Of a stretch of 64,000 bases of DNA, positions 36,319 through 41,410 are shown one piece after another; the first letter of the stretch is position 1, and each line of letters begins with the position of its first letter. The notes beneath the pieces are model-generated. The model worked only from the letters and a program-made list of their open reading frames with translations, ran no database searches and was not told where the DNA came from. A program made the position numbers and the translations under genes. This stretch comes from a virus (lineage: Duplodnaviria; Caudoviricetes). The stretch is from IMG/VR virus record IMGVR_UViG_3300036762_000065, positions 128,001 through 192,000 of that record; one strand, 5' to 3'.

Positions 36319-37194
36319 ATGTACTTAAGCGGCGAACAACAATACCTTAATCTATGTAGAAGAATACTAGATGAGGGCCACATGATACCAAATGAACGGA
36401 CAGGGAAAGGTTGCTTAACAGTAATCAATGCAGACTTCGAGTATGATTGTTCTGCAAATAAGTTCCCTTTGATTACAACACGTAAGGCTTTCTGGCGTTC
36501 AGCAATAGCAGAGCAGCTAGGATACTTAAGAGGCTTCGACAACGCCCAACAGTTTGCAAACTTAGGCTGTAAAACATGGTTTAGTAATGCAAACGAAACG
36601 AGTGCTTGGTTATCTAATAAGCATAGAAAAGGCGATGATGATATAGGTAGAGCGTACGGTGTTCAGTTGCGTGATTGGCGTAATCCTGAAGGTGAGAGAA
36701 TAGATCAACTACAGAAAGTTGTCGATGTTCTACAAACAGGGTATGATAACCGTAGGTTGATTATGACTTATCACAATCCTGGAGAACTAGATAGGGCAGC
36801 ATTAGATAGTTGTATGCACACCCACCATTTCAGTGTACTGGACAACACATTGTATTTAACAAGTTACCAGCGTTCTATTGACGTACCGTTAGGTCTAGTG
36901 TTCAACATGGTGCAAACGGTATTTCTATTGCGTGTGTTTGCACAGATATGCAACTTGAAGTGCGGTAAAGTTTTCCACAAGCTTGTTAACTGCCACATAT
37001 ATGATGATCAAATAGAGTTGATGCGAGATGTTCAGCTGGTACGGGAACCTTACGCAGAACCTACATTCCACATAAGCGAAGATATTAAAACTCTTAAAGA
37101 TTTGGAGACATGGGTAGATCCTCAAAACAAAGATCATTTCTGGGTTGAAGGTTATCAATATCACGAATCTATAAAATATCCTTTCGCCGCATAG
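36319..37194 (+). CDS. thyA: Thymidylate synthase
   Basis: NERTG, FPLITTRK, YG.Q.R, catalytic Cys in AL.SCMH, YQRS.D..LG..FN, HIY. Confidence 0.97.
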   Translation: MYLSGEQQYLNLCRRILDEGHMIPNERTGKGCLTVINADFEYDCSANKFPLITTRKAFWRSAIAEQLGYLRGFDNAQQFANLGCKTWFSNANETSAWLSNKHRKGDDDIGRAYGVQLRDWRNPEGERIDQLQKVVDVLQTGYDNRRLIMTYHNPGELDRAALDSCMHTHHFSVLDNTLYLTSYQRSIDVPLGLVFNMVQTVFLLRVFAQICNLKCGKVFHKLVNCHIYDDQIELMRDVQLVREPYAEPTFHISEDIKTLKDLETWVDPQNKDHFWVEGYQYHESIKYPFAA

Positions 37195-37309
37195 TGTAAA
37201 GTATATTAAAGACTACCCGTGCAGGTAGGAGCTACTCCGATTGTTTTGTTGAGCAATCTTTTGTGAAGGAGCGGTTGAAGTCCGAATCAACTTTTAACAG
37301 ACTGGAGGG

Positions 37310-37522
37310 GTGTGTATGAATCATAACAATCAATACAATATGCTTGAGAAAAAGGAAATAAATAAGAAAAAGGAAGCTGCACTTATACAGGCTCAGGTAG
37401 AAAAGTTTTTAGCAACAGGCGGCTCTATAGTAGAAGTTGCAGCAGCCTCTAACGTAGAAGAGGTTAAAGCAAGCGTGTTGCAAGCGCTAAGGAAGCAAGA
37501 GCTTAATTATGAACACCTGTAA
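37310..37522 (+). CDS. Small protein resembling the SutA RNA-polymerase-binding helix
   Basis: K.KE...I..QVEKFLA.GGSI.EV resembles the SutA core as recalled (KQKERDALAKAMEEFLSRGGKVQEI). Confidence 0.55.
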   Translation: MCMNHNNQYNMLEKKEINKKKEAALIQAQVEKFLATGGSIVEVAAASNVEEVKASVLQALRKQELNYEHL

Positions 37523-37569
37523 GAGGATCGAGGATAGTGCTATATTATATGAACTGAAAAGGAAATATC

Positions 37570-37743
37570 ATGACGACTAATATCATTACCACGATCTTCT
37601 TTGTATTCGCAGTACTCTTCACTACAACAGGGACATTTAAGGTCCAATATGTTATTAAACACAGGCTAGAATACGACGGCTTGCACTGGCACTTAGCTTC
37701 AGTATGTTGGGGCGTTGTGTTTTACTATTTCATATCTAGGTAA
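37570..37743 (+). CDS. Small two-helix membrane protein (57 aa)
   Basis: AAGGA RBS, open frame read manually, two hydrophobic segments. Confidence 0.5.
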   Translation: MTTNIITTIFFVFAVLFTTTGTFKVQYVIKHRLEYDGLHWHLASVCWGVVFYYFISR

Positions 37744-37814
37744 AAAGAAGTAGACCTAAAATGTTGATACGGCACTTAATAAAAATATTTCTGTAGCAAA
37801 ACAGGTGAATAAAA

Positions 37815-38345: not shown

Positions 38346-38663
38346 TTGAGAACTATGAAGAGTGAAGGTGTCGTAGATAATGACGAGAAACGACTGGATG
38401 AAGGCAAGTCCGTTCAAGATCGACTTGTTATGCGCGGTAATTGGATTGCCGCAGAAGACAAGTTGCCACCACCCGAAACACCCGTGTTAGCTTTTGTACA
38501 TGGCATAGACATACCCATAGTTTTAGAAATGAGATGGGAAACCTGCAACCCAATGGTTGAACCATATTTTAATGATTTTCTTTATTGGGATAACCCTCAT
38601 GACGATGGGCAAAATTATGAAGACAGGGTATTTGCATGGCAACCACTACCAGAAGACCCTTGA
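38346..38663 (+). CDS. DUF551-like phage protein (domain begins at Met 38430)
   Basis: WI...D.LP.....VL...V.AWQPLPE.P signature. Confidence 0.75.
   Translation: MRTMKSEGVVDNDEKRLDEGKSVQDRLVMRGNWIAAEDKLPPPETPVLAFVHGIDIPIVLEMRWETCNPMVEPYFNDFLYWDNPHDDGQNYEDRVFAWQPLPEDP
38375..38435 (+). repeat. Degenerate attC-like site A
   Basis: Right arm GTCCGTT...TTGTTATGCGC matches sites B-D; left arm (AGATAAT) eroded. Confidence 0.45.
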
Positions 38664-38664
38664 T

Positions 38665-38716
38665 ACACATAACCACAAGCACAACGGCTAGTCCGTTGAT
38701 GAGTAGGGTTAAGTGT
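38665..38716 (+). repeat. attC-like site B
   Basis: ACATAAC-CACAA-GCACAACGG-CTAGT-CCGTTGATGA-GTAGG-GTTAAGT imperfect hairpin just after the stop at 38663. Confidence 0.65.
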
Positions 38717-38996
38717 AAGTTTTGGAAGGTAGGCTTAGAAGCAGCCATCCTTTAAAGAGTGGGGTCTTTGCTCCTTGTGACATGTAACTACCTGGAGCGT
38801 TTTTGTAAGGTAGTGAAAGTTGAACCAACCGCTGACTTTGATCAGAGTTATGTTGGGTAGACAAGTTGCGTGGAGGATAACGCCAAAGAGCTAGTAAGAA
38901 CCTGTGAAATGACATGGGCATAGCGTGAGTTGGAGCGGTAAAAGTCGTACCCAACCTAACAGTCCCTTTAGCGTAACAGCACACCAGAACTTACAC
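38713..38996 (+). ncRNA. Structured RNA mimicking 23S rRNA H43-H44 (L11-binding GTPase centre) with a 210-nt insert
   Basis: GGCTTAGAAGCAGCCATCCTTTAAAGAGT...GCGTAACAGCACACCAG; 13-bp closing stem 38713-38725/38984-38996; compensatory pairs; no credible ORF. Confidence 0.8.
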
Positions 38997-39018
38997 CTAA
39001 TTTAACTAGGAGATAGCC

Positions 39019-39216
39019 ATGTTTTCAGAAGACGATTTGATTAATGTATGCGTCTACCCAGACGGTACACAAAGCCACAAGCCCCTGCCAGAGAAAGGGG
39101 ATGATTATGAATGGAGGCGCACCATTTACTGTGCGAGGTGCAACTCAGTATTGAGATTGCACCCCGAAGAGCCATTCGCTTCATGTGGATGCGGCACAAC
39201 GGAGTGGTACAAATGA
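39019..39216 (+). CDS. Small zinc-ribbon protein
   Basis: AGGAG RBS; CARC...CGCG. Confidence 0.7.
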   Translation: MFSEDDLINVCVYPDGTQSHKPLPEKGDDYEWRRTIYCARCNSVLRLHPEEPFASCGCGTTEWYK

Positions 39217-39590
39217 ATATAACTGATATGACAATAATCGGCGCGTATAACCCTGAGCACACCGGAGCTTTCGCTATGACAGATATGGATAAATACACAA
39301 AGCCAATTTATGACGGACACTACGCCGCAGTGAAAAAGCTGGACGCGAAAGCGTCCGAGTGCTGCGACTTGTTAGTGTGCCCATTTTGCGGCGGAGAGCC
39401 AGAACTTGATACGAGCAGATACTACAAGCCGATTGTTGGTAGCGATGTACATAAGAGCGTTTCGGTTTATTGCACAAGCGAAACCGGCTGCCCTGCAGAG
39501 ATGATGTTTTGTTACGCAGACTTCCCAGATTTTACGGTTGAGCAGCTGGCTGATTTAGCAAAAGAGTTTTGGAACAAGCGAGCACACTAA
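39213..39590 (+). CDS. Lar-family restriction-alleviation-like protein
   Basis: L..CPFCGGE...V.C....C...WNKR; ATGA coupling at 39213; stop lies inside attC-like site C. Confidence 0.7.
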   Translation: MNITDMTIIGAYNPEHTGAFAMTDMDKYTKPIYDGHYAAVKKLDAKASECCDLLVCPFCGGEPELDTSRYYKPIVGSDVHKSVSVYCTSETGCPAEMMFCYADFPDFTVEQLADLAKEFWNKRAH

Positions 39591-39643
39591 CCTTTTGCAC
39601 AGTGGCAAGCGTAGCGCGTCCACTGATGCTAGTTGTTATGCGC
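39585..39643 (+). repeat. attC-like site C
   Basis: CACTAAC-CTTTT-GCACAGTGG-CAAGCGTAGCGCGT-CCACTGATGC-TAGTT-GTTATGC; covaries with site B. Confidence 0.7.
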
Positions 39644-39671
39644 TACATTACCTACAGAGTGAGAAATTAGA

Positions 39672-39968
39672 ATGACTGAACAAGCTATTGAGAAAGAAAT
39701 ACAAGAAAAGAACTTAAACGCACCGCGCTTAACGCCTGACTTGATTGATGCGGCAATTAAAGAAGAGGACTACCACGTTTTTGAAAATACATGCTTAACA
39801 GTGTGTTGCCTGACATTACGCAACGGCTTTACTGTAACGGGTGAAAGCGCGTGTGCAAGCCCTGAAAACTTTGATGCTGAAATAGGTCGAAAGATTGCGC
39901 GTGATAATGCACGCAATAAGATTTGGATGCTTGAAGGCTATTTACTTAAAGAAAGACTAGCGAATTGA
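39672..39968 (+). CDS. N4 gp49 / Sf6 gp66-family protein (putative nucleotide-signal sponge)
   Basis: APRLTP..I...I, T.LTVC.L.L.NGFTV.G.SAC.SPENFDAEIG.KIA..NA..KIW.LEGYLL. Confidence 0.85.
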   Translation: MTEQAIEKEIQEKNLNAPRLTPDLIDAAIKEEDYHVFENTCLTVCCLTLRNGFTVTGESACASPENFDAEIGRKIARDNARNKIWMLEGYLLKERLAN

Positions 39969-39991
39969 TAAAATTGCGCTGCTTACACAGG

Positions 39992-40052
39992 GCGCATAAC
40001 ACAGTATTAGACGGCTACGTCTTTGTAGTCCGTTGATGCGGGTTGTTATGTG
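39992..40052 (+). repeat. attC-like site D
   Basis: GCATAAC-ACA-GTATTAGACGG-CTACGTCTTTGTAGT-CCGTTGATGC-GGGTT-GTTATGT hairpin. Confidence 0.7.
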
Positions 40053-40075: not shown

Positions 40076-40198
40076 ATGTTCGATGTTGACAATTTAGAGA
40101 AAAGAATCGAGAAACTTGAAGAAGCTATTTTAGACTTGACTAACGAAAACGCAAAAATGAAAGCGTTATTAGAAAATATTATAGCAGCACTAATCTAA
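40076..40198 (+). CDS. 40-aa coiled-coil peptide
   Basis: AGGAGG RBS; MFDVDNLEKRIEKLEEAILDLTNENAKMKALLENIIAALI. Confidence 0.6.
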   Translation: MFDVDNLEKRIEKLEEAILDLTNENAKMKALLENIIAALI

Positions 40199-40210
40199 TT
40201 TGGAGGATAT

Positions 40211-40315
40211 ATGAGTATTCAATGGGTTCGTGGTCACAGTGGTAACGCAGGTAACGAAATTGCAGATAAACTATGTGGTGATGCTGCAAGGGCACTTAGA
40301 GATAGAACCTTGTAA
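40211..40315 (+). pseudogene. 34-aa ORF equal to the C-terminal fragment of RNase HI
   Basis: MSIQWVRGHSGNAGNEIADKLCGDAA matches the RNase HI WV.GH.G...NE.AD.LA motif; GGAGG RBS. Confidence 0.7.
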
Positions 40316-40409
40316 ATAACAATTAAGTATAGGAGGAATAATATGCAACCTATTTTATTTATAGTAATAAATGTAACCATATACGATGTACTGAACAAGG
40401 AACTTTATA

Positions 40410-40883
40410 ATGCATAACTATGACCTTAACATAACAAATAATCAGTTACAGGTAATTGAATTTACAGTGCAGTTTTTTGAATTTGTTCATAAGTTTAGTA
40501 TAGAAACAAAGGCAAATATGACAGGGCTTGATATCATCAATTGGGCACTTGATGAGGTCTACGTGAATTTACCTATGACAGATGACCAACAACAATTGTC
40601 ATATATAAATTTTATAGGTCCTGAAGGGGAGCTAACTGTAGCAGACGATGACAATGAAGGTAGGGCTTGGTTAGGTCGTATGGTTACTGAAGTACGTATT
40701 ATTAGCCAGGTAAGTGATAAAGGTATAGCTTATAGACACCGCTATAAAGAATCTAATGAACACACGGTTAATTTCGGTCAATGGTCTGATTGGGAATACT
40801 GTGATGAAGATAAATATAATGAAATTTGTGCTTATATAAAGTCCGGGTATACGTACGAAGCTCAGAGGTTAGTATCCGGATAA
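40410..40883 (+). CDS. Hypothetical two-domain protein
   Basis: AAGGA RBS; C-terminal domain shared with 37815..38306. Confidence 0.7.
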   Translation: MHNYDLNITNNQLQVIEFTVQFFEFVHKFSIETKANMTGLDIINWALDEVYVNLPMTDDQQQLSYINFIGPEGELTVADDDNEGRAWLGRMVTEVRIISQVSDKGIAYRHRYKESNEHTVNFGQWSDWEYCDEDKYNEICAYIKSGYTYEAQRLVSG

Positions 40884-40909: not shown

Positions 40910-41410
40910 ATGGAACCAACTTATTTTTTAAGAACAGCTTGGGATAGTGAATGGGCTGAAGTGACTAAAAACCAGTTCATATGTGCGGAACGAGATGCAG
41001 GATTTTATCCTAAAAGCGGAAAAGAAGATGAATGTGCTACAGGCGGGTTTGGTTCCGCTTTTGGTGTGTCAGGTAGAATAATCTACAACGAAGAGGAAAT
41101 AAAAATGAGTAAGAAATCGTTAGGTAACACAGACGTAAATGGTGCAAAGAAAAACGTAAGCGACCTTGTTGTATATGGTGACGGCGATCTGTTTAAACTT
41201 TTGTCCAAAGCAAGCAGCCAGAACGAAGGCTGGATGAAAAGCACAAAAGCAATGGAAATAGAAGGTGTTGGTTGTGTTGTTCAAGTAACTACGCAACAAG
41301 GTAAGCATGTTGCAGAAGCCTTAACTTTTGTGCCTGGTGTTCGCATTGAGGAATCTGTATTGGATGAAGATACAGATATTGCTGTAAGTCGAAAGTTGGT
41401 GGCTATATAA
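40910..41410 (+). CDS. Hypothetical phage protein, possibly with a second start at 41105
   Basis: KASS..EGWMKSTKAMEI.G.GC.VQVTTQQ block; internal GAGGA plus in-frame ATG. Confidence 0.7.
   Translation: MEPTYFLRTAWDSEWAEVTKNQFICAERDAGFYPKSGKEDECATGGFGSAFGVSGRIIYNEEEIKMSKKSLGNTDVNGAKKNVSDLVVYGDGDLFKLLSKASSQNEGWMKSTKAMEIEGVGCVVQVTTQQGKHVAEALTFVPGVRIEESVLDEDTDIAVSRKLVAI

Follow-up and report, generated by a model that had tools for sequence, protein, structure and literature searches.

Integrons are regarded as repositories in which bacteria keep genes for resistance and against phages. On the bottom strand of their attC recombination sites the extrahelical bases stand on the 3' arm and the strand is cut at AA|C (PMC2727003, PMC8946536), the extrahelical base that selects the strand being normally a G (Bouvier 2009, PMC2727003); top-strand recombination of attC is also known, at a low rate (PMC9892861, PMC2727003). 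Groups of two or more attC sites with no nearby intI are known as CALINs, and their mobilisation in trans has been proposed (Cury 2016, PMC4889954). Qi et al. (2023) reported such clusters in lytic phages without intI, for example Pseudoalteromonas phage PH101/H101, and found that IntI1 recombines the PH101 sites with bottom-strand preference, IntI recombination of a folded single strand being shown for sites of PH101, TJE1 and P12002L (PMC9892861). The layout of PH101 was called typical, with no inversion reported (PMC9892861). The locus described here resembles those phage CALINs in its cluster of attC sites, its lack of intI and its short-site architecture. Phage CALINs, IntI1 activity and CALIN mobilisation in trans are therefore already published; what this locus adds is natural gain and loss in the form of an exact presence/absence allele, high-identity cassettes shared with other phages, an attI-type end site putatively linked to chromosomal IntI, and RNA cargo. 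A literature search, with subscription journals mostly outside its coverage, found no description of inverted phage cassettes.

The array lies in a complete phage record with terminal repeats (IMGVR_UViG_3300036762_000065; 241,706 bp), of which the window analysed here, 64,000 nucleotides in length, comprises bases 128001-192000. It sits between thyA and dfr among a run of small co-oriented genes, in the early-type part of the 242-kb genome (Table 1). Its GC content of 45.5%, against 39% genome-wide, falls in the top 1% of equal windows, in agreement with the GC enrichment noticed in a first-pass annotation of the sequence. That annotation had proposed an integron-like cassette platform in a phage without integrase, and this has held up: units are gained and lost precisely, and the complete genome has no integrase. 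Of the four related hairpins that it named (A to D), we recovered B, C and D at the same places and failed to support A, and a further site, E, had been missed. By definition the array is a CALIN, as B, C and D are significant and E is supported, with all four on one strand and within 1.4 kb (the definition being at least two attC within 4 kb).

Table 1. Features of the cassette array and its immediate flanks, in window coordinates.
Feature	Position	Strand	Description
DUF551-family gene	38355..38663	+	102 aa; PF04448; retained in close relatives L097/L104/L105; homologues in other phage arrays
Site A	38375..38435	+	degenerate; inside DUF551 frame; right arm and GTT box alone family-like (G at 38427)
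Site B	38667..38714	+	attC-type hairpin, bottom strand on +; crossover 38672|38673; junction seen in relatives
Variable block	38673..39999	+	1327 bp; three units: B + ncRNA + 65-aa gene, E + Lar, C + gp49; missing from close relatives
ncRNA	38709..39000	+	similar to the GTPase-associated centre (uL11-binding) of 23S rRNA, with an insert of ~210 nt; carried along in the B unit
65-aa gene	39019..39216	+	two CxxC-type motifs; ends ahead of site E
Site E	39245..39377	+	long attC-type hairpin, inverted repeat I14; loop holds Lar start; crossover 39250|39251
Lar-family restriction-alleviation-like gene	39276..39590	+	104 aa; PF14354 at 33 bits, over cut-off; stop is the TAA of site C
Site C	39585..39641	+	attC-type hairpin; crossover 39590|39591; 38.2 bits
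N4 gp49 / Sf6 gp66 family gene	39672..39968	+	98 aa; PF13876; cassette also in four other phages (L003, L004, L084, L119)
Site D	39994..40051	+	last site; left arm of attI type joined to loop and right arm of attC; crossover 39999|40000
40-aa coiled-coil-like gene	40076..40198	+	behind site D; common to relatives

Sites B, C and D share a common plan of AAC, five unpaired bases, a 3-pair and a 6-pair stem and a variable loop; on the 3' side a T comes first, then six bases, a single bulged base, three further bases, five unpaired ones and GTT. A covariance model (R1), built from 39 phage sites of other contigs with the window sites and near copies left out, scored B at 41.8, C at 38.2 and D at 27.1 bits, and these were its sole matches in a search of the 242-kb genome. 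Folding against shuffles gave z values of -4.7 for B, -2.8 for D and -1.0 for C, and a strict architecture scan found two sites in the window versus one in 40 simulated 64-kb sequences. Inverted R boxes (AAC and GTT) are present in B, C, D and E, and the L boxes are paired in B, C and E around a central spacer of 5-6 nt that is unpaired; in D the outer L stem is unpaired in part in the model alignment. Stems covary across the site family in an alignment fitted to structure, and the covariation first noticed in the inner arms of the window hairpins holds. Site E is weak by score (15.5 bits, E 0.34; fold z -1.2) and draws its support from a 99.7% identical copy of the E + Lar unit in another phage contig (L158), which begins at the AA|C of its left foot; the GTT box of E and the end of Lar are exact complements over 10 nt. 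Site A folds no better than shuffles (z +0.3), scores 11.7 bits (E 2.7) and has AAT where the left box requires AAC; the identity of the window to homologues in other phages begins within it, at 38425. A near-identical copy of site C precedes another gene in L083. No family for the sites was found in Rfam, and a pattern scan of bacterial genomes returned six matches, none confirmed by the covariance model.

Hairpins standing between co-oriented genes, one of them (C) overlapped by a weak terminator-like match, could act in RNA only, as terminators or processing sites. Terminator-like matches are nevertheless near the shuffled count (5 vs 2.9 +/- 1.7), and such a role leaves the precise gain and loss of units and the DNA junctions at AA|C described below unexplained, making this explanation extremely improbable. 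An added RNA-level effect of the hairpins beside their DNA role is possible.

Model R1, applied on the phage gene strand, scores 43.8 bits on attC-aadA7 with every pair present. The match is to the strand that does not bear the aadA7 gene, which places the phage genes on the attC bottom strand. With the gene-sense strand as the bottom strand, the crossover would fall at AA|C at the left end of the hairpin, and a cassette would consist of a hairpin and the gene downstream of it. Both extrahelical bases are on the plus-strand 3' arm in the window, as on the bottom strand of aadA7; the longest ORF, by a crude ORF call, is on the site strand in 49 of 56 inter-site intervals of related arrays; and the published bottom strand of PH101_attC2 is the strand of all 18 annotated genes around it. 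Judged by the model match, the window sites are ordinary attC architecture read from the other strand and not the distinct site family that had been suggested. Their outer bases do deviate from strict RYYYAAC/GTTRRRY, as do those of the IntI1-active PH101 and TJE1 sites.

In common with canonical cassettes (attC-aadA7, Vibrio VCR; PMC2727003, PMC8946536) these units have an invariant AAC/GTT core, an unpaired central spacer, a variable loop, end complementarity of 9-11 nt for Lar and gp49 and a predicted bottom-strand cut at AA|C. Unlike them, the gene is on the bottom strand behind its own hairpin, which can hold the gene start, and it is on this orientation that the array departs from the canonical gene cassette. 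Unlike canonical integrons, the array has no intI and would need no cassette promoter Pc, and in B, C and D the two extrahelical positions of canonical attC, six pairs apart, and the T are present but the distal extrahelical base is A where G normally stands (E is irregular); across 90 sites of the family this base is G in 48, A in 24, C in 11 and T in 7. Treponema integrons have their integrase turned relative to attC (PMC4889954), whereas here it is the cargo genes that are turned, while attC, attI and, on one contig (L127), intI keep the usual geometry. In PH101 (L086, 3599-3655 and 5001-5057) a hairpin and its leader are present twice, with identity running from the left foot, consistent with a duplicated inverted cassette. 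Published phage CALINs thus deserve re-reading for polarity.

Close relatives of the phage from other samples (L097, L104 and L105) lack exactly 38673-39999 and have the end of the DUF551 gene joined to D at AA|C. A precise gain or loss among relatives had been anticipated at G/TT; the precision was found and the joint is another. The D hairpin is whole in these relatives and identical over 135 nt, the body of B is not retained, and no more than 6 nt overlap at the join, even though a longer stretch inside the sites is common to B and D. Identity of L097 to the window is 95.8% on the left-hand side of the join and 100% on the right-hand side, which makes the join a lineage mosaic point as well, and the difference may be a gain or a loss. 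Nine contexts have a gene end in common with the window. Compared as BLAST-anchored pairs, with one mis-anchored row (L125) left out, they agree at 91% over the 25 nt leading up to AA|C and at 43% beyond it. (A census of 40-nt flanks was rejected as a junction measure; it was noisy, with A+T-rich leaders matching by chance.)

Different hairpins follow one and the same gene end, five in the case of DUF551, five for gp49 and two for Lar, and one identical DUF551 protein has the same hairpin upstream in three contexts and two different hairpins downstream. The hairpin travels with the gene downstream of it, entire for E + Lar, D and one DUF551 protein, and as loop and right arm for gp49; one end in L158 diverges 10 nt ahead of the site. 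The gp49-family unit is 39591-39999, in place of the cassette 39636-40045 recombining at G/TT that was first put forward as the main unit. Both this cassette and the Lar one turn up in other phages within the same borders. That mobile units bounded at AA|C are real we regard as very likely. The B unit (B, ncRNA and 65-aa gene; 578 bp) was not found in the other contexts searched.

The first-pass polarity, in which genes would move mainly together with the hairpin downstream, by plus-strand recombination at G|TT, finds some footing in three related pairs that switch hairpin at G|TT, with two keeping a similar downstream hairpin, and in the existence of low-rate top-strand recombination, and end complementarity fits it as well as the opposite polarity. 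Such G|TT switches are a minority of the related cases, however, and the main route is already contradicted by the relatives without the block, in which the body of D and not that of B remains. It also sits poorly with two extrahelical bases on the plus-strand 3' arm and with five hairpins behind the end of DUF551 and five behind that of gp49, and we consider it very unlikely.

Passage of a unit through a circle would lead one to expect complementary cargo ends across the gene. These ends are complementary over 10 nt for Lar, 9 nt for gp49, 6 nt for DUF551 and 4 nt for the B unit, and the first pass had correctly noted that C at its right end is the exact complement of D at its left end over 9 nt. 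Complementarity of at least 7 nt occurs across the gene in 37 of 56 units, compared with 12 of 56 within one site. Sites themselves also change: cassettes that are otherwise identical differ in the loop, sites have exchanged loops and arms with one another, in some related pairs the break falls within the stem, and in one pair two genes common to both are separated by entirely unlike hairpins. Such swaps, the RecA-family protein encoded in the genome, a non-site deletion with 5-nt microhomology just downstream in the relatives and the coincidence of the join with a lineage mosaic point would all suit hairpins that are relic repeats, among which genes move by homologous or microhomology recombination (for instance by the phage RecA-like protein) with no site-specific enzyme now acting. 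Against this, the joins are concentrated in a 5-6-nt overlap at AA|C and stay clear of the longer stem that is shared, cargo ends are complementary mostly across the gene, and family stems covary (in the alignment fitted to structure). We therefore think a relic origin of the repeats quite unlikely.

The search of the rest of the genome for a tyrosine recombinase, recommended at first pass, was negative: the complete genome has no PF00589, TIGR02249, resolvase or IntI-like match, and searches with IntI1 and P0018 found none either. The genome also lacks RecT and serine resolvase, and the one weak match to a Y1 transposase, over 46 positions, is below cut-off. Nor did 19 phage records, of which 9 are near complete and almost all contain such sites, yield a tyrosine recombinase above the cut-off. 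The recombinases found beside this site family are integron integrases only. On a 1.8-kb marine contig (L127, 1-1767) a family site and an 84-aa gene in the same orientation accompany a half site and the gene of an integron integrase. An inverted cassette of phage type holds the first position there, beside the attI-type site and intI, and this contig may be a bacterial integron with a captured phage-type cassette or a phage integron. On a bacterial contig (L159) the same half site and a promoter-like box stand just before intI, among housekeeping genes, and the integrase passes TIGR02249 (402 bits vs a cut-off of 265). We read the half site before intI in both contigs as the putative attI of that integron family. 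Relatives of the L127 IntI were not found as phage-borne genes in viral contigs, and in cultured phages the search returned known integrons only.

The attI-type half site is the last site of the arrays in L114/L120, L149, L145 and L158, and in L125 it closes the first of two sub-arrays. In our phage D is the last site and the point where the extra block joins. Its left arm matches attI-type arms at 11-13 of 14 positions, against a mean of 5.2 and a maximum of 9 of 14 for 85 attC-type arms, which explains its poor pairing; a 12-base match to this arm occurs once elsewhere in the genome, with 0.09 expected by chance. The element falls short of a complete integron in having no intI; D combines an attI-type left arm with an attC loop and right arm. 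This apparent attI-type end ties the array, by sequence, to IntI rather than to another enzyme. A non-IntI tyrosine recombinase (Xer-like) from another phage or element could act on the same sites with the same polarity, given that the host enzyme in trans is one that we infer and that the extrahelical G is often replaced; we judge it unlikely, as only integron integrases adjoin the site family (L127, L159), PH101 sites work with IntI1, and the 19 related phage records gave no tyrosine recombinase over the cut-off.

We propose that these are mirror-image cassettes moved by IntI acting in trans, a mechanism that, taken whole, is probably correct. Each site would fold as single-stranded DNA on the gene-sense strand into the attC bottom-strand shape, as the model match indicates, and a single strand would cross over at AA|C, where the hairpin has its left foot, by chemistry presumed from IntI. 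The mobile unit would be a hairpin, a gene and the next AA, in accordance with the junction positions. As the phage is without a recombinase of this class, the enzyme acting in trans would be an integron integrase from the host or a co-resident element, with D as an attI-derived docking site at the downstream end to which new units would be added one after another. A hairpin could carry a gene start, as in E, and since the genes run with the surrounding phage genes no cassette promoter would be needed; a sigma-70-type promoter scan for Pc, a type of scan that does not cover phage promoters, gave nothing above shuffles. The loop and arm swaps would be the product of homologous recombination or of rarer top-strand events. 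Insertion at attG (Loot et al., 10.1101/2022.09.11.507474) is a route by which a first cassette could enter a genome without attI; it needs GWT only, whereas the end site in the window is a specific attI-type arm. The AA|T ends seen at site A, at the end of the ncRNA and in L022 were considered as attG insertions and do not fit GWT.

More tentatively, and with rather more doubt than belief, we suggest that lytic phages, whether small or jumbo, draw on a common pool of mirror-image cassettes and have captured attI from hosts without its integrase, that the chromosomal IntI of the host would load accessory and counter-defence genes and an rRNA-mimic RNA into the phage during infection, and that D would be such a docking site, to which this lineage has added three units. 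Should phages employ that enzyme on inverted cassettes, the integrase of the host would diversify its enemy as well, and part of phage mosaicism would have a defined site-specific cause. The locus is of value for its natural before and after alleles, its precisely placed borders, the cassettes that other phages share with it and the enzyme family that it offers as a candidate, which together make the idea testable by a standard assay.

The DUF551 gene is presumably the oldest unit of the array. Site A was first thought to supply its start methionine (GTTATG), a proposal that we discard: gene callers place the start upstream of site A (101-102 aa), and in homologues of the protein the site-A Met is internal. 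The overlap of the Lar stop with site C, by contrast, is as first described. Anti-defence cargo is suggested by the single Lar-family match. The 65-aa gene has no Pfam or PHROG match and its look-alikes are all unnamed. BLAST against cultured phages matched gp49 and thyA pieces only, and relatives chosen by thyA (L001/L002) were rejected as comparators, being too distant and without sites.

In the ncRNA of the B unit, positions 38721-38760 joined to 38971-38988 match an annotated 23S rRNA segment at 46 of 58 positions, and its core motif is present in ten viral contigs (L085, L087-L095), often among tRNA genes. In this phage RNA family both halves of the 23S rRNA uL11-binding site are kept around inserts of varied length; Rfam has no such family and our literature search found no description. 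The matching ends of the ncRNA had been taken for cassette-like boundaries and the RNA gene for part of the shuffled cargo. The closest homologue (L087), 80% identical, has the same closing stem and no hairpin site, indicating that these ends are RNA structure, namely the closing helix of the ncRNA. As a stand-alone cassette it was rejected, because no site follows it and the stem exists without sites. The 5' arm of the closing stem and the GTT box of B occupy the same place, and B departs from the family just before that box. The B unit looks composite, with the ncRNA riding in the variable block.

Several minor observations concern the surroundings of the array. The downstream deletion in L097, L104 and L105, a second one of ~590 bp (window 40135-40730), fuses the 40-aa gene to the tail of a 157-aa gene. 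The thyA region is itself mosaic (window 36319-37800 vs L097 3548-4714): the thymidylate synthase of the relatives differs, is 388 aa long and comes after small ORFs, and an HDOD-domain gene lies upstream. An independent assembly of the same phage (L096), 100% identical, starts at window 39596, a break 5 nt inside site C that could reflect mixed alleles in the sample or chance. Upstream of the array, a 70-aa gene (window 37310-37522) has a below-cut-off match to the SutA RNA-polymerase-binding domain and is a possible modulator of host transcription, and just downstream a 166-aa gene (window 40910-41410) has a precomputed Pfam match to PF26760 (Lockin). In L028 (~2920-2960) what we take to be a CRISPR-repeat-like sequence replaces the upstream hairpin of a gp49-family cassette. 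The terminal sites of L114, L119, L125, L145 and L158 have an inverted 7-nt repeat ~19 nt apart over a sigma-70-like promoter, and this promoter of the attI-type end sites points at the next phage gene, which stands in the place of intI.
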